Part shown: positions 1 to 6,364 of the stretch, piece by piece
How the letters are laid out: each line of letters begins with the position of its first letter
Position numbering within the stretch: the stretch's first letter is position 1
Origin: a virus
Lineage: Duplodnaviria; Heunggongvirae; Uroviricota; Caudoviricetes
DNA length: 9,294 bases
Direction: 5' to 3' (one strand)
Virus record (IMG/VR): IMGVR_UViG_2695420698_000011
Program-made: the position numbers and the translations under genes
Notes under the pieces: generated by a model
The model's database searches: none
What the model saw: only the letters and a program-made list of their open reading frames with translations
Told to the model about the DNA's origin: nothing

Positions 1-5
1 TGGTA

Positions 6-230
6 GTGTCCGCTATTGCCAGTACACCTCATCCATCACCGAAAAAAATTGGCTTTTACACCATTGGCGATAAAAGCATTTACCTGTATGACCTACGCCG
101 CATGGATGAAATCATGGAGGCTCTTGATAATCGTTCGTCGATGGATTGGTGTGTTGCTGTTCATGATATGAATGCAGGGTTTGATGAAAAGATTTTGTTC
201 CCCTCATCAGTTGAAAGCACTGCGGGTTAA
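6..230 (+). CDS. hypothetical phage protein (74 codons from GTG at 6; frame is open to the window edge, so the true start may lie upstream)
   Basis: Open frame from window start to TAA 228-230; sits directly upstream of a coupled gene string; no family recognised. Confidence 0.35.
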   Translation: MSAIASTPHPSPKKIGFYTIGDKSIYLYDLRRMDEIMEALDNRSSMDWCVAVHDMNAGFDEKILFPSSVESTAG

Positions 231-240
231 GGAGTAACAC

Positions 241-408
241 ATGACCACTATTACCAAAGAACGTATTGAATTGTTCATTAAAAACCCGCTTGAAAACGGG
301 CTTACCCGTGGTGAACAAATGGAACTGGCACGGATTGCGCTGGCATCGCTGGAAGCAGAGCCGGTTGTGTTCTGGTTTGAAAAATATCAAGAAGGGGCTA
401 CGGCATGA
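241..408 (+). CDS. small hypothetical phage protein, 55 aa
   Basis: ATG 241 preceded by AAGGAGT at 227-233; stop TGA 406-408 overlaps ATG 405 of the next gene (ATGA coupling). Below the 60-aa ORF-track cutoff, read by hand. Shares an IAL-SL-AEP motif with the next ORF. Confidence 0.5.
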
Positions 409-749
409 CGACTTTTACCAGAGAGCAGTTAATAGCTCACGCAGAGGAGACTATTGAAGCACAGAGACTGTGCATACCGGGCACAATCGACCATGACATC
501 ATCCGCACATATAAGATGGATATTGCTGTTCTGGAAATCGCACTGGTATCGCTGGCAGCAGAGCCAGCCGGTAAATTGCATGAATACAAACCAGTGGGAT
601 ATCAGCGTCTGGTCGATGAGTTAACCATGCTGGTAAAGCAGTTAACCTGGCAACTGAGGAAAGCGAAGCCAGACTGCAAATTACCGGATAAGGCGATGAG
701 TTATCTGGAGCGGAACGGACTGATAAGCGTGGAGGATATTTTACGATGA
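405..749 (+). CDS. hypothetical phage protein, 114 aa
   Basis: ORF track; ATG 405 with GAAGGGG upstream; stop overlaps next ATG at 746. N-terminus [15 protein letters not shown] resembles the N-terminus of the ORF at 3225. Confidence 0.55.
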
Positions 750-829
750 CCTGGCCTGAAGCATTAACAACGGTAGGAATTGCGATGGCGGTGGCGCTGG
801 TGGTGTATTCGATTTGCCGCTGGGGATAA
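746..829 (+). CDS. small hydrophobic peptide, 27 aa ([27 protein letters not shown]), possible membrane peptide
   Basis: ATG 746 overlaps stop of upstream gene (ATGA); GGAGGA at 729-734; one hydrophobic stretch. Hand-read, short, unverified. Confidence 0.3.
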
Positions 830-1040
830 AAACGGTTTGCGGGAAAAGGAGAGTTAAGTAGAATTGCAGCGGGTGCTTGAGGCTATCTGTCTCAGGCATG
901 AACACCAAAAGGCAGATAGAGAAAAGCCCCAGTTAACATTACGCGTCCGGCAAGACGCTTAACATTAATCTGAGGCTCAATCTATGAACGGCAAATCTAG
1001 GTTAGCCTCTTACGTGCCGAAAGGCAAGGAGAAGCAGGCT

Positions 1041-1196
1041 ATGAAGCAGCAAAAGGCGATGTTAATCGCCCTGATCGTCATCTGTTTAACCGTCATAGTG
1101 ACGGCACTGGTAACGAGGAAAGACCTCTGCGAGGTACGAATTCGAACCGGCCAGACGGAGGTCGCTGTCTTCACAGCTTACGAACCTGAGGAGTAA
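1041..1196 (+). CDS. hokD: Hok/Gef-family membrane toxin, 51 aa (HokD/RelF-like)
   Basis: Translation MKQQKAMLIALIVICLTVIVTALVTRKDLCEVRIRTGQTEVAVFTAYEPEE: N-terminal TM helix plus conserved Hok C-terminal region; matches my recollection of E. coli HokD/RelF. AAGGAG at 1027-1032, 8 nt before ATG 1041. The track ORF 984..1196 is an in-frame upstream extension. Confidence 0.8.
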   Translation: MKQQKAMLIALIVICLTVIVTALVTRKDLCEVRIRTGQTEVAVFTAYEPEE

Positions 1197-1266
1197 GAGA
1201 CCAGGCGGGGGAGAAATCCCTCGCCACCTCTGATGGGTCAGGCATCCTCAATGCACCCACACTTAA

Positions 1267-1290
1267 CCCGCTTCGGCGGGTTTTTGTTTT
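1267..1290 (+). terminator. rho-independent terminator after hok (CCCGC-TTCG-GCGGG plus T-run)
   Basis: GC stem 1267-1271/1276-1280 followed by TTTTTGTTTTT; preceded by a longer imperfect hairpin at about 1204-1225 that could be the hok mRNA 3' fold-back. Confidence 0.7.
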
Positions 1291-1416
1291 TATTTTCAAC
1301 GCGTTTGAAGTTTTAGATGGTGCCGGAATAGAATCAAAAATACTTAAGTAGCGCGCAGGGAGAAGAGGGATGGACCCCGAACAGGGGAGTGCTATTTATC
1401 TGGAAGGATTCTGTTG

Positions 1417-1698
1417 ATGAAAATCGAAGAATTACGTGAAATTTTTAGTGAAGATGGCCTCTATACTGTGCGCGTTGAGAATGGCGCTATTGTCAGCCAC
1501 TGCCTTCCAGACTACACAATTCTGATAATTCAGCCGTCTTTGCCAGCAGGCACGGGCGGCGCTCTCACGCATTTAAATCTGATTGGTACCAGCATCCCCC
1601 ATGCACTGAAGAACAGGCCGAATGGCTCATTCAGTGTTACCGCAGGCGCGGATGCGAGGTTAAAAAAGCCCTTAGCCTCGACTACCGTCACTGGATAA
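1417..1698 (+). CDS. hypothetical protein, 93 aa (rem-like by position between hokD and ydfU as I recall for the Qin prophage)
   Basis: ORF track (TTG 1414 / ATG 1417); AAGGA at 1404-1408, 8 nt before ATG. C-terminal half is low-complexity, so the 3' end may be unreliable. Assignment is by synteny only. Confidence 0.45.
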   Translation: MKIEELREIFSEDGLYTVRVENGAIVSHCLPDYTILIIQPSLPAGTGGALTHLNLIGTSIPHALKNRPNGSFSVTAGADARLKKPLASTTVTG

Positions 1699-1773
1699 TC
1701 TCCGTCAGGCTCCCTTACTCCGAACGGCCAACGCGTCCGTCCCGCACATTCCAGCAACGGATCTGGAGGTAAT

Positions 1774-2832
1774 GTGCGGGTATTACTTCGACCTGTTCTG
1801 GTACCGGAACTCGGTCTGGTTATCGTTAAGCCAGGCCGTGAATCAATGTCAGCATTCCATAACGGCAGAATACTGGTGGAGCCGGAACCAAAAAGCATGC
1901 GTAATCTGCCGTCCGGGGTCGTTCCTGCCGCTCGCCAGCCGCTGGTGGAAGACAAAACATTGCTGCCGTTTTTCAGTAACGCACGGGTGATTCGTGCTGC
2001 TGGTGGTGCTGGTGCATTGTCTGACTGGCTGTTGCGCCATATTAAATCCTGCCAGTGGCCACACGGCGATTATCATCACAGCGAAACCGTCATTCACCGT
2101 TATGGTACCGGCGCAATGGTGTTGTGCTGGCACTGCGACAACCAGCTGCGTGACCAGACATCCGAATCACTCGAGCAACTTGCTCATCAAAACCTGTCAG
2201 CATGGATGATTGACGTCATCGGTCACGCAATAAGCGGTACGCAGGAGCGTGAATTATCTCTGGCTGAATTATCCTGGTGGGCGGTCCGCAATCAGGTGGC
2301 GGACGCGCTACCGGAAGCGGTATTACGTCGTTCGCTGGGGTTGCGTGCGGAAAAAATTCGCTCTGTGTACAGTGAAAGCGACATCATACCGGGAGAGCAG
2401 ACAGCCACCAGCATACTGAAGCAGCGCACAAAAAATATTGCGTTACTGCCTCACGTCCACCAGCAACAGAACCCACCACAGGAAAAGACGGTGGTCAGCA
2501 TTGCCGTTGATCCGGAGTCACCGGCTCAGTATCTCCAGCGCCAGAAATCACAACGGGAAGAGATGCCTGTATACACGCGCTGGGTAAAAACGCAGAAATG
2601 CATGACGTGTGGCAATCAGGCAGATGATCCGCATCACATCATTGGTCATGGACTGGGAGGGATGGGAACAAAGGCTGATGATTTGTTTGTTATTCCGTTA
2701 TGCCGTAAATGCCGTAACGAACTACATGCCGGAGTAAAAGATTTTGAAGAGAAACACGGCAGTCAGCTGTTGTTGCTGATTCGTTTTTTAATGCACGCGA
2801 GAAATTCGGGTGTTCTGAAGTGGAAAGCATAA
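1774..2832 (+). CDS. ydfU: DUF968-family phage protein (YdfU-like), 352 aa, with C-terminal CxxC...HH...CxxC HNH-like zinc motif
   Basis: Long ORF; GGAGG at 1765-1769 (short spacing to GTG 1774, so start is uncertain). C-terminus KCMTCGNQADDPHHIIGHG...LCRKCRNELH looks like an HNH/zinc-ribbon nuclease fold. Lies upstream of rusA and Q as in Qin-like prophages. Confidence 0.75.
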   Translation: MRVLLRPVLVPELGLVIVKPGRESMSAFHNGRILVEPEPKSMRNLPSGVVPAARQPLVEDKTLLPFFSNARVIRAAGGAGALSDWLLRHIKSCQWPHGDYHHSETVIHRYGTGAMVLCWHCDNQLRDQTSESLEQLAHQNLSAWMIDVIGHAISGTQERELSLAELSWWAVRNQVADALPEAVLRRSLGLRAEKIRSVYSESDIIPGEQTATSILKQRTKNIALLPHVHQQQNPPQEKTVVSIAVDPESPAQYLQRQKSQREEMPVYTRWVKTQKCMTCGNQADDPHHIIGHGLGGMGTKADDLFVIPLCRKCRNELHAGVKDFEEKHGSQLLLLIRFLMHARNSGVLKWKA

Positions 2833-2926
2833 ATGACCGAGCGCATAGAATTTGTTTTACCTTACCCGCCGACGGTGAACACTTACTGGCGTCGTCGTGG
2901 CAGCACATATTTTGTATCAAAAGCCG
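2833..2926 (+). pseudogene. 5' fragment of a second rusA allele (MTERIEFVLPYPPTVNTYWRRRGSTYFVSKA), cut off by a 7-N gap
   Basis: ATG 2833 directly follows the ydfU stop (TAA 2830-2832); the 31 codons parallel the start of the intact rusA at 3467 (LPYPPTVNTYWRRR...YFVSKAG) with nucleotide differences; sequence ends at N 2927-2933. Confidence 0.6.
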
Positions 2927-3057: not shown

Positions 3058-3224
3058 CTGGTTGTCTGGAGATTCAGGGGGCCAGTCTACGGACATTTTC
3101 TGCCTGTGGACCAGGAAAGTGCACGGGTGCTTTCCACTCCCATGAAGCCCGGCAATCCGCGCAGATACAGTAATAAACGAACTGACAGCAGTAAGATGGA
3201 GCGTTTCTTTTGAACAACCAGACA

Positions 3225-3467
3225 ATGACTTTTACCCCTGAACAATTGCGTAAACACGCGCAGGAAATGCTGCGTCATGCTGAACAACTCGAAAAAACGG
3301 GCATAACAAAAGACGCTATCCGTAAAGATATGGTACCCGCGCTTCGGGAACTGATGCAGGCGAAGCATCGCGCACAGAAAGCAGTAGATGAGCTGGTGGA
3401 CTGTGTGGCAGAGCTGGAAACCAGAGTCGGAAAGTTTGAAAAACTGGTGCAGGAGGTGCTGCGCTGA
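3225..3467 (+). CDS. hypothetical small coiled-coil-like protein, 80 aa from ATG 3225 (the track starts at TTG 3210)
   Basis: ORF track; stop TGA 3465-3467 overlaps rusA ATG 3467; N-terminus MTFTPEQLRKHAQE is paralogous to the ORF at 405. No clear SD. Confidence 0.5.
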   Translation: MTFTPEQLRKHAQEMLRHAEQLEKTGITKDAIRKDMVPALRELMQAKHRAQKAVDELVDCVAELETRVGKFEKLVQEVLR

Positions 3468-3841
3468 TGCGCCATGAGTTTATTTTACCTTATCCGCCGA
3501 CGGTGAATACTTACTGGCGACGTCGTGACAACACATATTTTGTATCAAAAGCCGGTGAGCGTTATCGCCGGGATGTGGCGCTTATTGTCCGTCAGCAGCG
3601 ACTGAAATTAAGCCTGTCCGGAAGACTGGCGATAAAGATTATTGCAGAGCCACCGGATAAGCGCCGTCGTGACCTGGACAATATCCTGAAAGCACCACTG
3701 GATGCACTGACACATGCGGGAGTGTTAATGGACGATGAGCAGTTTGATGAAATCAATATCGTTCGTGGTCAGCCAGTATCTGGTGGACGTCTGGGGGTGA
3801 AGATTTACCCCATAATGCATGAAGAGCAGGTCAAAAAATGA
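3467..3841 (+). CDS. rusA: RusA-family Holliday junction resolvase, 124 aa
   Basis: Translation has the RusA hallmarks as I recall them (LPYPPTVNTYWRRR..., RRDLDNILKAPLDALT, GVLMDDEQF) and typical size; stop overlaps the Q start at 3838 (ATGA). Confidence 0.85.
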   Translation: MRHEFILPYPPTVNTYWRRRDNTYFVSKAGERYRRDVALIVRQQRLKLSLSGRLAIKIIAEPPDKRRRDLDNILKAPLDALTHAGVLMDDEQFDEINIVRGQPVSGGRLGVKIYPIMHEEQVKK

Positions 3842-4398
3842 AACTGGAAGATTTACCGAAATACTACTCCCCAAAATCCCCTTGCCTGACCGATGCATCG
3901 GCCTCAACGTCAAAAGATGCGCTGAGTATCACTGATGTGATGGCCGCGCAGGGCATGACACAGAATCGGGCTGAGATGGGGTTTTCTGCGTTCCTGGGGA
4001 AAATGGGCATCAGTATGAATGACAGGGCGCGGGCAACAGAATTACTGGCAGATTATGCACTCAGTCGGTGCGATCGTGTGGCGGCGTTGAGAAAACTTCC
4101 GGCAGAAATAAAACCGGTAGTGATGCGCATTATGGCTTCGTACGCTTTTGAGGATTATGCCCGCAGCGCAGCGAGTAAAAAGCAGTGCCCTTGTTGCTAT
4201 GGGGAAAAATTTATTGAAAGCGTAGTTTTTACAAACAAGGTCCAGTATCCGGATGGTAAGCCGCCGGTATGGGCAAAGTGTACGAAAGGTGTGTATCCGT
4301 CTTACTGGGAAGAATGGAAAAAAGTCAGGGAGGTGGTAAAAGTTGCCTGTCCGGAGTGTGGCGGAAAGGGTGAGNTTCCTTGGGAAAATGGGCATTAG
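3838..4398 (+). pseudogene. Q antiterminator copy A: N-terminal 179 codons intact to 4374, then frame runs through an ambiguous base (4375) into a diverged repeat
   Basis: ATG 3838 coupled to rusA stop; translation identical to the 4672..5427 ORF over the shared region up to CPECGGKGE; base 4375 is n and the downstream sequence restarts an internal part of the same gene. Confidence 0.6.
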
Positions 4399-4623
4399 TA
4401 TGAATGACAGAGAGCGGGCAACAGAATTGCTGACAGAATATGCACTCAGTCGGTGTGATCGCGTGGCGGCGTTAAGAAAACTCCCGGCAGAAATAAAACC
4501 GGCAGTGATGCGTATTATGGCTTCGTATGCGTTTGAAGATTATGCCCGTAGCGCGGCGAGCAAAAAACAGTGCCCCTGCTGTCACGGAAAAAAATTTATT
4601 GAAAGCGAGGTTTTTACAAACAA
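4376..4623 (+). repeat. diverged internal Q-gene fragment (copy B), bounded by single n at 4375 and 4624
   Basis: Aligns to 3991-4238 of copy A with scattered substitutions (protein ARATELLADY to ERATELLTEY, CYGEK to CHGKK); looks like an allele from another prophage. Confidence 0.7.
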
Positions 4624-4671
4624 NCCGATGCATCGGCCTCAACGTCAAAAGATGCGCTGAGTATCACTGAT

Positions 4672-5427
4672 GTGATGGCCGCGCAGGGCATGACACAGAA
4701 TCGGGCTGAGATGGGGTTTTCTGCGTTCCTGGGGAAAATGGGCATCAGTATGAATGACAGGGCGCGGGCAACAGAATTACTGGCAGATTATGCACTCAGT
4801 CGGTGCGATCGTGTGGCGGCGTTGAGAAAACTTCCGGCAGAAATAAAACCGGTAGTGATGCGCATTATGGCTTCGTACGCTTTTGAGGATTATGCCCGCA
4901 GCGCAGCGAGTAAAAAGCAGTGCCCTTGTTGCTATGGGGAAAAATTTATTGAAAGCGTAGTTTTTACAAACAAGGTCCAGTATCCGGATGGTAAGCCGCC
5001 GGTATGGGCAAAGTGTACGAAAGGTGTGTATCCGTCTTACTGGGAAGAATGGAAAAAAGTCAGGGAGGTGGTAAAAGTTGCCTGTCCGGAGTGTGGCGGA
5101 AAGGGTGAGGTTTCCACCGCCTGTAAGGATTGCCGTGGGCGTGGTGTCGCCATTCATCGTGAAGAGTCGGTAAAACGTGGTATGCCTGTTATCAGAGACT
5201 GCCAGCGTTGTGGTGGTCGTGGCTATGAAAGACTACCATCAACGGAGGCATTTAATGCTATATGCGAGGTGACAAACCAGATAACACGCGCGTCATGGGA
5301 AAAAACAGTTAAGAAATTCTATGATGCGCTGGTGACTCGGTTTGATATTGAAGAAGCATGGGCTGAGCGGCAGTTAAAAAAGGTAACTAGGTTGATTTTT
5401 CCGGAATCTGTGGTAAATTCGTCATAA
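4672..5427 (+). CDS. Q-like late antiterminator, 251 aa ORF (copy C), with four CxxCxGxG-type zinc-finger repeats
   Basis: Intact ORF to TAA 5425-5427 immediately upstream of a lambda-like PR'/pause element; sequence from 4625 repeats copy A 3888-4374 exactly as far as I can read. The authentic protein probably starts at ATG 3838 (about 283 aa if the duplication is artifactual). Family call rests on position and size. Confidence 0.7.
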   Translation: MMAAQGMTQNRAEMGFSAFLGKMGISMNDRARATELLADYALSRCDRVAALRKLPAEIKPVVMRIMASYAFEDYARSAASKKQCPCCYGEKFIESVVFTNKVQYPDGKPPVWAKCTKGVYPSYWEEWKKVREVVKVACPECGGKGEVSTACKDCRGRGVAIHREESVKRGMPVIRDCQRCGGRGYERLPSTEAFNAICEVTNQITRASWEKTVKKFYDALVTRFDIEEAWAERQLKKVTRLIFPESVVNSS

Positions 5428-5866: not shown

Positions 5867-6364
5867 NNNNNNNNNNNNNNNNNNNNNNNNNNNNNNNNNN
5901 NNNNNNNNNNNNNNNNNNNNNNNNNNNNNNNNNNNNNNNNNNNNNNNNNNNNNNNNNNNNNNNNNNNNNNNNNNNNNNNNNNNNNNNNNNNNNNNNNNNN
6001 NNNNNNNNNNNNNNNNNNNNNNNNNNNNNNNNNNNNNNNNNNNNNNNNNNNNNNNNNNNNNNNNNNNNNNNNNNNNNNNNNNNNNNNNNNNNNNNNNNNN
6101 NNNNNNNNNNNNNNNNNNNNNNNNNNNNNNNNNNNNNNNNNNNNNNNNNNNNNNNNNNNNNNNNNNNNNNNNNNNNNNNNNNNNNNNNNNNNNNNNNNNN
6201 NNNNNNNNNNNNNNNNNNNNNNNNNNNNNNNNNNNNNNNNNNNNNNNNNNNNNNNNNNNNNNNNNNNNNNNNNNNNNNNNNNNNNNNNNNNNNNNNNNNN
6301 NNNNNNNNNNNNNNNNNNNNNNNNNNNNNNNNNNNNNNNNNNNNNNNNNNNNNNNNNNNNNNNN
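5867..6364. other. 498-nt N run (masked or unsequenced)
   Basis: Literal n characters; hides the 5' part of the methyltransferase gene and anything between the terminator and that gene. Confidence 0.95.

Follow-up and report, generated by a model that had tools for sequence, protein, structure and literature searches.

A DUF968/YdfU-family prophage protein with a predicted C-terminal His-Me finger domain and an altered active-site position

The open reading frame at positions 1774-2832 of the window (the whole 9,294-nucleotide stretch of prophage DNA that was analyzed) encodes an ordinary member of the widespread prophage protein family DUF968/YdfU. In the reading that best explains the evidence, to which we assign as a whole a probability of about 0.62, this is a three-part protein with a C-terminal nuclease domain, and the present copy is a probable relic. 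The first two parts would be a Cys/His domain at the N-terminus and a helical middle region with a disordered linker behind it; the third, at the C-terminus, would be a nuclease domain of the beta-beta-alpha-metal (His-Me finger/HNH) type, homologous to DUF1364/YbcO.

The assignment to HNH, the neighborhood of RusA and Q and the hypothesis of a recombination nuclease have been in print since 2017: Jablonska et al. 2017 placed DUF968/YdfU together with DUF1364/YbcO in group 7 of the His-Me fingers, listed RusA, Q and antirepressor genes as neighbors, and proposed a nuclease acting in recombination (PMC5714182). YbcO has itself been predicted to be a nuclease, its His superimposing on a catalytic His (PMC4999995). 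The preliminary description of this locus had called the function of the family uncharacterized, which holds for experiment, as our literature search retrieved no report of nuclease activity for any DUF968 or DUF1364 protein, but not for the assignment and the hypothesis, both of which are in print (PMC5714182). New here are the dispensability of the CxxC pairs alongside a conserved core, the Arg at position 314 in this copy, and a census of neighbors across 79 species. The finding rediscovers a published bioinformatic assignment, and this copy, in a Shigella prophage undergoing decay, has probably been damaged in its active site.

The DUF968 gene and its immediate surroundings

The gene and its nearest neighbors in the window are as follows:

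1765..1769, plus strand: ribosome-binding site GGAGG, 4 nt 5' of the GTG start, read directly from the sequence
1774..2832, plus strand: DUF968/YdfU-family gene, 352 codons plus TAA, start GTG, from the list of open reading frames
2833..2926, plus strand: 5' part of rusA, 31 codons, truncated by a scaffold gap (N run at 2927-2933)
3467..3841, plus strand: second rusA, intact, 124 aa; Pfam RusA E=1.8e-16, 92% identical to the rusA of locus L002

The upstream open reading frame ends with a TAA at 1770-1772, just 3' of the GGAGG, and the RefSeq annotation of E. coli gives the gene an equal length of 1059 nt. Its TAA stop (2830-2832) abuts the ATG of rusA (2833), whose product begins MTERIEFVLPYPPTVNTYWRRRGSTYFVSKA and is a RusA resolvase. 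Promoter and terminator scans around the gene yielded nothing relevant above chance, and hok and other morons lie nearby. In complete genomes with identical DNA, rusA is intact, encodes 126 aa and is followed by Q; in L002, for example, the intact 126-aa RusA lies at 9060-9440, with Q next. The DNA 5' of the second rusA matches prophages in which the order is DnaB helicase, hypothetical, RusA/Q; this second copy belongs to another prophage contig, joined by scaffolding, and is not the partner of the DUF968 gene. We rejected a true rearrangement, with a broken rusA, an IS end, a second rusA and three copies of Q, as an explanation of the downstream region, because the window is a draft scaffold with gaps in which several prophages are collapsed into one; the complete genomes simply read DUF968-rusA-Q.

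Family membership is unambiguous. The protein matches Pfam DUF968 (PF06147) at residues 160-344 (E=2.6e-62, 210.3 bits against a cut-off of 27.8) and PHROG 96, named 'HNH endonuclease', over its full length (residues 1-349, E=1e-162), and each large search returned more than 1,000 homologs at E<=0.001. PHROG 11007, a separate family of unknown function, covers residues 2-135. The match to HNHc_6 (PF16784) at residues 261-328 is marginal (28.0 bits against a cut-off of 26.6) and partial, spanning model positions 113-184 of 204; the same model is matched by 13 of 49 diverse DUF968 members (E<=0.01). The NCBIfam search gave no match, the PADLOC defense-protein models gave none at E<=0.01, and the Pfam search detected neither DUF1364 (E<=1) nor NinG in the protein. 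Among complete E. coli genomes, 4,540 of 5,426 match the DUF968 gene, and members of the family are also carried by prophages of Enterobacterales, Vibrio, Aeromonas and Pasteurellaceae.

Domain architecture and the conserved core

Along the coding sequence we distinguish three regions and, within the last of them, six sites:

1774..2163, plus strand: N-terminal domain, aa 1-130, with the motif LCWH(H/C)DN and a putative metal site (C93, H101, C118, C121)
2164..2535, plus strand: middle region, helical at aa 131-220 (LSxxELxWWA), with a disordered linker at aa 225-246, from AF2 and the alignment
2536..2829, plus strand: predicted C-terminal His-Me finger (HNH-like) domain, aa 255-352, from HNHc_6, 3g27, hhalign and AF2
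2599..2610, plus strand: first CxxC, C276-M-T-C279, putative structural zinc ligands
2632..2637, plus strand: H287-H288, predicted metal ligand and general base, end of beta-strand 1
2680..2682, plus strand: D303, where H-N-H has its structural Asn, 15 residues past H288
2701..2712, plus strand: second CxxC, C310-R-K-C313, read from the sequence
2713..2715, plus strand: codon 314, CGT (Arg), at a conserved His position that is a predicted catalytic-metal ligand
2725..2727, plus strand: H318, the second conserved helix His, one turn past position 314

The C-terminal motif first noted at this locus, CMTCG...DPHHIIGHG...LCRKCRNELH, is present in the translation as C276-M-T-C279-G, D285-P-H287-H288-I-I-G-H-G and L309-C310-R-K-C313-R314-N-E-L-H318. 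It does not occur by chance, because the protein matches DUF968 and, over its full length, PHROG 96; a fortuitous CxxC/HH/CxxC/H arrangement in an unrelated protein is refuted by a block conserved throughout the family and by matches to curated HNH models. The order CxxC, HH, CxxC, H is likewise there, although it omits the His that the family places after the second CxxC and that is Arg in this copy.

The emphasis originally laid on the CxxC pairs did not survive comparison. All four Cys (C276, C279, C310 and C313) are present in the window copy; across the DUF968 family, however, these pairs appear from the alignments to be dispensable, and a His/Asp/Lys set is the conserved feature instead. 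C279 is replaced by Thr in 68 of 73 homologs of the Vibrio/Aeromonas branch, where C310 is variable and C313 is Ala or Glu, and His stands at the position of C313 in 67/79 species loci. By contrast, H287 and H288 are His in every full-length homolog compared, a single one of the 460 homologs covering D303 has a residue other than Asp there, and H318 does not vary in alignments A3 and A5 and is His in almost every homolog of the census. H287, H288, K300, P308, H314 and H318 are kept in all homologs of the Yersinia set, the Vibrio/Aeromonas set and the species loci that cover them, which gives a conserved core of H287-H288...K300..D303....P308.....H314...H318. With residues of catalytic type kept and zinc cysteines replaceable, the pattern is one that suits an enzyme and does not suit a zinc ribbon of purely structural function.

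The C-terminal ~95 residues are supported as a His-Me finger (HNH-like) domain by profile comparison and structure modeling, in agreement with the HNH-like C-terminus of the preliminary description, for which HNHc_6, PHROG 96, YbcO/3g27 and a predicted beta-beta-alpha arrangement (pLDDT ~90) all speak. The full-length AF2 model, built from 49 sequences, has a pLDDT of 80.5, with blocks of ~85-95 in the C-domain, and predicts strands at 285-288 and 306-309 and a helix at 311-319, a reading of secondary-structure order only. H288 closes the first of these strands and aligns to YbcO H32, and position 314 pairs with YbcO H58. Searches of the PDB by sequence gave 3g27 (YbcO) as the best match, at borderline significance (the single sequence giving E=0.88 and the C-domain profile E=0.049), and hhalign of the C-domain against YbcO gave E=1.2e-4 at a probability of 55%; 3g27 was recovered weakly and from the isolated C-domain only, as the full-length sequence and the full-length profile found nothing in the PDB. 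Foldseek with the full-length model returned nothing significant from the PDB, the best match being the CBASS protein Cap5 (E=1.5), with the HNH-containing IscB also listed at low probability. Against BFVD, the matches were only stand-alone DUF968 C-domain proteins and uncharacterized phage proteins; the stand-alone phage homologs superpose on the model with TM 0.6-0.8, normalized to the target.

In the middle region, a conserved motif, VDPEsPAxxxxxxK, follows the disordered linker in the alignment. Nearly all homologs that cover the N-terminal domain have Cys at positions 93 and 118 and either Cys or His at 101 and 121; in the model, residues 105-118 form a hairpin and 119-125 a helix (pLDDT ~90). 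The N-domain had no fold match, a Foldseek search with a separate model (pLDDT 85.6) returning noise only. Its SCQ-x6-(H/C)...LCWH(C/H)DN resembles the CQ-x6-C...CSACH of YbcO, with a hairpin and helix in the AF2 model. We considered a second His-Me finger here, for which hhalign was not significant (E=0.044 against YbcO, E=0.14 against the C-domain); H108, the His ending strand 1, is not conserved, and a second finger at the N-terminus is an unproven lead. Among domain fusions, the sole one that seemed meaningful joins a LexA-type wHTH to the HNH C-domain (P0204); fusions of the N-domain to tail-tip or tail-fiber domains (P0146, P0174, P0176) look like products of prophage deletion or chimeric assembly and were disregarded.

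An arginine at position 314

Position 314 is His in 120/120, 117/117, 72/72, 79/79 and 65/71 of the homologs compared (453/459 in total), and Arg in none of these 459; in this comparison Arg occurs in the window copy only. Stated by motif, the residue after the second CxxC is His in 120/120 close and nearly all distant homologs (CRKCHNELH), so that a predicted metal-binding His/Asn on the helix at this point is kept by the family and not by this copy, in which H318 remains. A CAT to CGT change would account for the replacement of His314 by Arg. The open reading frame is 100% identical to that of S. sonnei chromosomes; in complete genomes it is flanked by transposases of the IS1 and IS3 families, and gene calling turned up neither replication nor repressor genes in these flanks. 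The R314 allele also occurs in E. coli MLI121 and 600029, and its open reading frame is intact and found in thousands of assemblies.

By analogy with a characterized HNH enzyme, the R314 copy is most likely a relic whose catalytic activity is abolished or severely reduced, and not a working nuclease/recombination module. Inactivity is probable because 453/459 homologs have His at this position and none has Arg; the reading as a dead relic rests further on the loss of activity when the equivalent imidazole is removed, the H320A substitution of HpyAV, at the position equivalent to 314, leaving <0.1% activity (PMC2816704), and on the location of the gene in an S. sonnei prophage remnant disrupted by IS1 and IS3. 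The proposal of a nuclease/recombination module is borne out for the setting, as the gene sits in the nin region in close array with rusA and Q; at this locus such a module is doubtful, because the conserved His314 is missing. Since the allele is intact, present in thousands of assemblies and shared by at least two E. coli strains, the R314 form may still have its function, or an altered or non-catalytic one.

Neighborhood, relatives and rival explanations

We compared the neighborhoods of DUF968 genes at 79 species loci. Q, the late antiterminator, lies within the first two downstream genes in 76/79. DUF968 has a fixed place ahead of Q, in the last or next-to-last delayed-early (nin-region) slot, and its distance from rusA is usually below 3 kb. 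The flank contains RusA in 49/79 loci and lacks it in 30/79, and K-12 Qin lacks it too; RusA lies upstream in 46/79 and directly downstream of DUF968 in only 3/79, all of the E. coli/Shigella type. The adjacency to rusA remarked on at the outset is therefore real here, as the TAA/ATG junction attests, but is confined to this subtype; elsewhere rusA lies upstream, and the constant neighbor is Q. DUF968 keeps its synteny with Q across three Q families that are not related to one another, which speaks against a partnership specific to Q. Across genera, DUF968 is co-localized with RusA and with a Phg_2220_C-domain protein, which we take to be replication-related. No homologs of NinG, NinB or YbcO were found within 4 kb of the 79 loci. 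The linkage to RusA may be mere nin-region synteny, with functional coupling not required.

One of the closest known loci is ydfU of the K-12 Qin prophage. YdfU (349 aa) belongs to the same family, has the same three-part architecture and aligns with the window protein end to end, sharing SCQWP.GDYHH...LCWHCDN in the N-terminal and DDPHH.IGHG.GGMGTKA.DLFV.PLCRK.HNELH in the C-terminal part. Its gene occupies the same slot, after hokD and rem and before Q. The two differ in that YdfU has H314 (CRKHHNELH) where the window copy has R314, and in that Qin lacks a rusA between ydfU and Q, which the S. sonnei locus possesses. YbcO (DLP12/phage 82; DUF1364; 3g27) is the best, and the only credible, relative of the C-domain with a solved structure, H..G.GTK..D....C..CH aligning residue for residue. 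In DLP12, ybcO is immediately upstream of rusA, which it overlaps, in the nin region. It is unlike DUF968 in being a 96-aa, single-domain protein without the N-terminal and middle domains, and sequence comparison indicates that DUF1364/YbcO is a related family of which the window protein is not a member.

In phages of Listeria and Staphylococcus, the Orf-HNH proteins (HNHc_6; Curtis et al. 2014) have the same predicted role, that of an HNH protein associated with phage recombination. The Orf-like N-domain reported for them is undetectable here: when profiles of the N-terminal part, the middle part and the full length were compared with lambda NinB by hhalign, the results were E=0.02-0.11 at probabilities <3%, and an Orf/NinB-like N-domain, as has been claimed for 'DUF968' proteins from Gram-positives, was rejected for this protein. 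The HNH endonuclease Rap/NinG of lambda (PF05766), which is branch-specific and was assigned to the same superfamily as DUF968 (PMC5714182), has the same niche, in the nin region shortly before Q. Only a 12-residue R.xPCxxCG knuckle aligns between the two (hhalign E ~1e-3, probability 20%), the domain architectures are unlike, and the functional analogy is one we infer; the lack of NinG within 4 kb of the 79 loci is consistent with alternative cassettes.

With the colicin E9/E7 DNases, DUF968 has in common the spacing HH...(15)...N/D...(9-11)...H...(3)...H, of which the fourth His is presumably the counterpart of ColE9 H131. In DUF968 the order is H-H, 15 residues, D, 11 residues, H; in ColE9 it is H102-H103, 15, N118, 9, H127, residues that serve as the general base, as ligands of the metal and as a brace for the hairpin (PMC2816704). 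The residue at the hairpin-brace position is Asp, not Asn, at a spacing equal to that from ColE9 H103 to N118, and roles for H287/H288 can be proposed by analogy with His102/His103 (PMC2816704). Enterobacterial DUF968 members further differ in an extra, putative CCC(C/H) zinc site, sequence similarity is undetectable outside the motif, and the window copy has Arg at 314.

On these grounds the DUF968 protein of functional phages would be a divalent-metal-dependent DNA endonuclease, with H288 as general base, H287, H314 and H318 holding the catalytic metal, and D303 bracing the hairpin. Its substrates would be branched or single-stranded replication or recombination intermediates formed during lytic growth, its role that of lambda Rap/NinG in NinG-carrying phages, exercised alongside RusA, and its non-nuclease domains might recognize DNA or structure.

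We consider it unlikely that the protein is instead a non-catalytic zinc-finger or treble-clef DNA-binding protein, such as one that regulates late transcription together with Q, in which the HNH-like motif is a structural relic. Q nearly always follows the gene directly, the annotation of one family member is 'phage transcriptional regulator', P0204 couples the C-domain to a wHTH, solved nucleases give no significant structural match, and a copy without His314 persists as an intact open reading frame in many genomes. Yet the predicted catalytic residues are kept and entire branches have lost zinc cysteines, where a structural zinc finger would be expected to behave the other way round; sequence groups the family with nuclease families, and the synteny extends over three unrelated Q families. 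Phage HNH genes are often homing enzymes or terminase helpers, and the PHROG name says merely 'HNH endonuclease'; a free-standing selfish or packaging-associated enzyme is nevertheless very improbable for a gene that keeps a single syntenic slot in the nin region before Q in 76/79 species loci, is neither beside terminase nor inside another gene, encodes two additional conserved domains and was seen in no intron or intein context.

A nuclease of conflict, degrading host or competitor DNA in superinfection exclusion or anti-defense and not the phage's own intermediates, is quite improbable. Many stand-alone His-Me fingers are toxins or defense effectors (PMC5714182), the top, non-significant PDB fold match is the CBASS effector Cap5, and hok and other morons are close by. 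PADLOC, however, found no match, no small immunity-like gene is consistently adjacent, and co-localization across genera is with RusA and the putative replication gene (Phg_2220_C). A doubtful extension of the preferred reading, the three-part nuclease, would make DUF968 a two-module branched-DNA nuclease. Its N-terminal, treble-clef-like Cys/His domain (C93, H/C101, C118, C/H121, with CWHHDN), unrecognized until now, would be a YbcO-type finger that has degenerated into a non-catalytic copy and senses DNA structure on behalf of the catalytic finger at the C-terminus, and with RusA the protein would take the place of Rap/NinG in a large class of lambdoid phages. If true, this would make the R314 allele fixed in S. 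sonnei a ready-made catalytic-site mutant; less likely still, the R314 protein would be a domesticated variant with DNA binding only.

The R314 copy is useful as a natural mutant and not as a new system. The families to which it leads, YdfU and YbcO, are recurrent companions of the RusA resolvase in the lambdoid nin region, including that of Shiga-toxin-phage-like prophages, and knowing the substrates of DUF968 and YbcO would be part of understanding how lambdoid phages process their replication and recombination intermediates.

The C-terminal domain of the DUF968 protein

The DUF968/YdfU gene appears in the ORF list as a single long ORF behind a ribosome-binding sequence:

1765-1769, + strand: ribosome-binding GGAGG, 4 nt before the GTG start of the DUF968 gene
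1774-2832, + strand: DUF968/YdfU gene, 352 aa

RefSeq holds an E. coli gene of equal length (1059 nt) under the label 'DUF968 domain-containing protein'. The translation includes C276-MT-C279-G, D285-P-H287-H288-IIGHG and L-C310-RK-C313-R314-NEL-H318, and thus contains every residue of the CxxC, HH, CxxC, H motif quoted in the preliminary description.

Several independent lines of evidence agree on an HNH / His-Me finger C-terminus. Pfam DUF968 spans aa 160-344 (E=2.6e-62), Pfam HNHc_6 ('putative HNHc nuclease') spans aa 261-328 at 28.0 bits versus a cut-off of 26.6 and is also matched by 13 of 49 diverse DUF968 relatives, and PHROG 96 ('HNH endonuclease') matches the full-length protein (E=1e-162). 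For the C-terminal 100 residues, the only credible match among all PDB sequences is YbcO (3g27), the DUF1364 protein of the DLP12 prophage, at E=0.88 with the single sequence, E=0.049 with a 23-sequence domain profile and E=1.2e-4 (probability 55%) with hhalign. The alignment pairs H288 with YbcO H32, the two GTK..D blocks with each other, and position 314 with YbcO H58; YbcO itself has been placed among the His-Me fingers on structural grounds (PMC4999995; PMC5714182). In an AlphaFold2 model built from 49 sequences (mean pLDDT 80.5; about 85-95 in the C-domain), the predicted order of strand 285-288, which ends in H288, strand 306-309 and helix 311-319 is that of a beta-beta-alpha element. 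A Foldseek search of the model against the PDB gave no significant match (best E=1.5, the CBASS effector Cap5); IscB was among the matches at low probability. The spacing HH-15-D-11-H-3-H resembles that of H102, H103, N118 and H127 in ColE9, which act there as metal ligands (His102 and His127), general base (His103) and hairpin brace (Asn118) (PMC2816704).

We compared 459 homologues (120 close E. coli/E. albertii sequences, 149 representatives at 50% identity, 117 from a Yersinia-dominated set and 73 from Vibrio/Aeromonas/Oceanisphaera/Actinobacillus) and a further 79 DUF968 genes, one genome per species. The conserved residues are C276, H287, H288, K300, D303, P308, H314 and H318. C279 is replaced by Thr in 68/73 Vibrio/Aeromonas-branch sequences, C310 is variable in that branch, and C313 gives way to His in 67 of the 79 species loci and to Ala or Glu in the Vibrio/Aeromonas branch. 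Because the predicted catalytic set is kept while structural zinc ligands are lost, an enzyme is favored over a mere zinc ribbon. The HNH-like reading proposed from the sequence alone is supported for the C-terminal domain, but the CxxC pairs on which it drew are not the conserved feature.

The HNH assignment of DUF968 is itself already known, and its recognition here is a correct re-discovery, since it was published in 2014-2017 and is carried by databases (PHROG 96; some UniProt entries named 'HNH nuclease domain-containing protein'). Curtis et al. (2014) described DUF968 as having a zinc-finger HNH motif and as occurring fused to Erf, Rad52 and RusA (PMC4118853). Jablonska et al. (2017) placed DUF968 (YdfU) and DUF1364 (YbcO, 3g27) in His-Me finger group 7, gave RusA, Q and antirepressor genes as neighbors, and hypothesized a nuclease for recombination/repair, similar to NinG and Ref (PMC5714182). 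Our literature search found no paper testing DUF968 function.

The N-terminal and middle regions

The N-terminal 130 residues (window 1774-2163) are conserved as a unit of their own: PHROG 11007 spans aa 2-135, and many database proteins consist of this part alone. In nearly every covering homologue (about 460), C93 and C118 are Cys, and positions 101 (H) and 121 (C) are Cys or His. In the AlphaFold2 model, a hairpin (105-118) is followed by a helix (119-125) with the motif C118-W-H-(H/C)-D-N at its beginning. These positions look like a putative treble-clef-type metal site, and the pattern C-Q-x6-(C/H) ... C-x2-(C/H) resembles the ligand pattern of YbcO. Homology of the N-domain to YbcO was not significant with hhalign, Foldseek with a dedicated N-domain model returned only noise and no known fold, and the His at the would-be general-base position is not conserved. 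The window protein shows no detectable counterpart of the Orf/NinB-like N-domain reported in Gram-positive 'DUF968' proteins (PMC4118853). Residues 131-220 are helical in the model, with a conserved LSxxELxWWA, and residues 225-246 are disordered.

In three database proteins (P0146, P0174, P0176) the DUF968 N-domain is attached to tail-tip J or tail-fibre domains; these are probably chimeras produced by deletion or by assembly. Another, P0204, pairs the DUF968 HNH domain with a LexA-type winged-helix DNA-binding domain, plausibly a natural 'DNA-binding plus nuclease' variant.

The R314 allele and its source locus

The window protein departs from the family at a conserved position:

2713-2715, + strand: codon 314, CGT = Arg

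Across the compared sets, this residue is His in 120/120, 117/117, 72/72, 79/79 and 65/71 sequences, and the window protein alone has Arg; a typical E. coli copy that is 98% identical has His. The allele is not limited to S. sonnei, because E. coli MLI121 (Mali) and 600029 (Bangladesh) have the same Arg codon in genes 99.7-99.8% identical; in their prophage, NUDIX and HAD hydrolase genes lie upstream, where S. sonnei has IS elements. In HpyAV, the H320A mutation, which takes away the imidazole at the corresponding position, leaves activity <0.1% (PMC2816704), and on this basis we think that the window copy has lost all or most of its catalytic activity.

An identical 352-aa protein occurs in >3,000 blocks of the collected assemblies, and window 1-2926 is 100% identical to complete chromosomes carrying it, including CP179977 from Shigella sonnei isolate 623218 (PMC12511311). 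The gene order in the finished genomes is hok, rem-like ORF, DUF968, rusA (126 aa, intact), Q (273 aa) and DNA methyltransferase. The early region of this prophage has been replaced by IS1 and IS3-family transposases, so the S. sonnei locus is a prophage remnant. Together, R314 and the erosion of the prophage by IS elements suggest that the gene at this locus is a relic.

The GTG start lies 1 nt past the TAA of the preceding ORF, and the DUF968 stop TAA (2830-2832) abuts the ATG of a RusA-like ORF beginning MTERIEFVLPYPPTVNTYWRRR, bearing out the reported adjacency to a resolvase gene. Just 5' of DUF968 (~1417-1772), public annotations give two incompatible gene calls, a Rem-family ORF at about 1417-1698 (PF27490) and a 90-92-aa ORF that stops at 1772, a single base ahead of DUF968, and for which the mechanical ORF list has no ATG/GTG/TTG start. 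Farther upstream, a 70-aa Hok/Gef family toxin ORF (984-1196; Pfam E=3e-23), with a strong terminator-like hairpin and T run on its 3' side (1265-1282), represents the hokD-like type I toxin module that this prophage region typically carries.

Contiguity with the S. sonnei locus is limited to window 1-2926:

2927-2933, 4375, 4624, 5867-6364, 8121-8242, 8613-9192: N runs
3838-4398, 4343-4660, 4672-5427: overlapping Q antiterminator copies/fragments (Pfam Antiterm PF03589 and a DnaJ-type CXXCXGXG zinc region)

We conclude from these N runs, and from the 92-100% matches of the pieces beyond the first gap to differing regions or copies of lambdoid prophages, that the window is a gapped draft scaffold in which several such prophages are collapsed. 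A real duplication of rusA and Q was rejected in favor of assembly artefacts, given the N runs and the simple order in finished genomes. The three Q fragments, parted by single-N gaps and 92-100% identical to the S. sonnei Q, are collapsed Q alleles from different prophages. The second rusA (start 3467) is 92% identical to the true DUF968 neighbor. One piece of the DNA beyond the first gap matches prophages ordered DnaB helicase, hypothetical, RusA/Q, a type in which RusA has no preceding DUF968. Another, on the minus strand (2934-~3089), has what we take to be the InsC N-terminus of an IS2-like end and, as scaffolded, lies ~380 nt 5' of the second rusA copy; rus mutants of E. coli K-12 owe their rusA activation to IS2 and IS10 insertions upstream of the gene. 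An 85-aa ORF (3210-3467) 5' of this rusA matches only C-terminal positions 121-203 of 204 of PHROG 2565 (function unknown) and is probably the remainder of a gene cut off by the IS2 end or at the contig boundary. Downstream of the DNA methyltransferase gene, a prophage tRNA cluster (7171-7420 and 8257-8333) comprises a CAT-anticodon tRNA (Met per ARAGORN; its homologue Ile per RefSeq), tRNA-Arg(TCG) and tRNA-Arg(TCT); the repeat of the last after a gap is probably another scaffold duplication.

Genomic neighborhood and the possible role of DUF968

Our survey took one locus from each of 79 species-level genomes, nearly all of them Enterobacterales, and found Q as the first downstream gene in 71 and within the first two in 76; the Q genes belong to three unrelated families (PF06530, PF03589, PF06323). 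No NinG, NinB or YbcO homologue lies within 4 kb of any of these DUF968 genes; in lambda, NinG is three genes before Q. From the Q synteny and the absence of NinG, DUF968 is therefore a nin-region gene in the slot of lambda Rap/NinG. RusA is found in the flank at 49 loci and not at the other 30; it is directly upstream of DUF968 at 13, second upstream at 31, usually separated from it by an antirepressor gene (Rha/KilAC or KilA-N), and third upstream at 2. Only 3 of the 79, of the E. coli/Shigella/E. albertii type, have it directly downstream as in the window, so the link to rusA is frequent and not obligatory, and the tight DUF968-to-rusA coupling is a subtype feature. In K-12 Qin, Q comes straight after ydfU and rusA is absent; in DLP12, ybcO, the small homologue, overlaps rusA. 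Of the nuclease/recombination module envisaged beside RusA, the nin-region position and the frequent link to rusA are borne out; the window's own arrangement is rare, and R314 suggests a relic here. Overall, the feature is real and its initial interpretation was partly right. What we add is modest: a census of conservation residue by residue, the finding that the CxxC pairs are dispensable, the H314R lesion of the S. sonnei allele, a quantified DUF968 neighborhood and an unproven N-terminal metal-site lead.

A non-catalytic DNA-binding protein, a selfish or terminase-helper HNH, and a conflict nuclease are all less well supported as accounts of the family than a phage recombination nuclease. 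Building on the observed family, domain and context, and inferring chemistry and substrate from homology and neighborhood, we propose that DUF968 probably serves functional phages as a metal-dependent endonuclease expressed from the delayed-early transcript. DNA cleavage would fall to the C-terminal finger, in which H288 would be the base, H287, H314 and H318 would bind the metal and D303 would brace the hairpin; the remaining domains would recognize substrates. The enzyme would probably act on branched or single-stranded replication and recombination intermediates, working parallel to RusA and in place of Rap.
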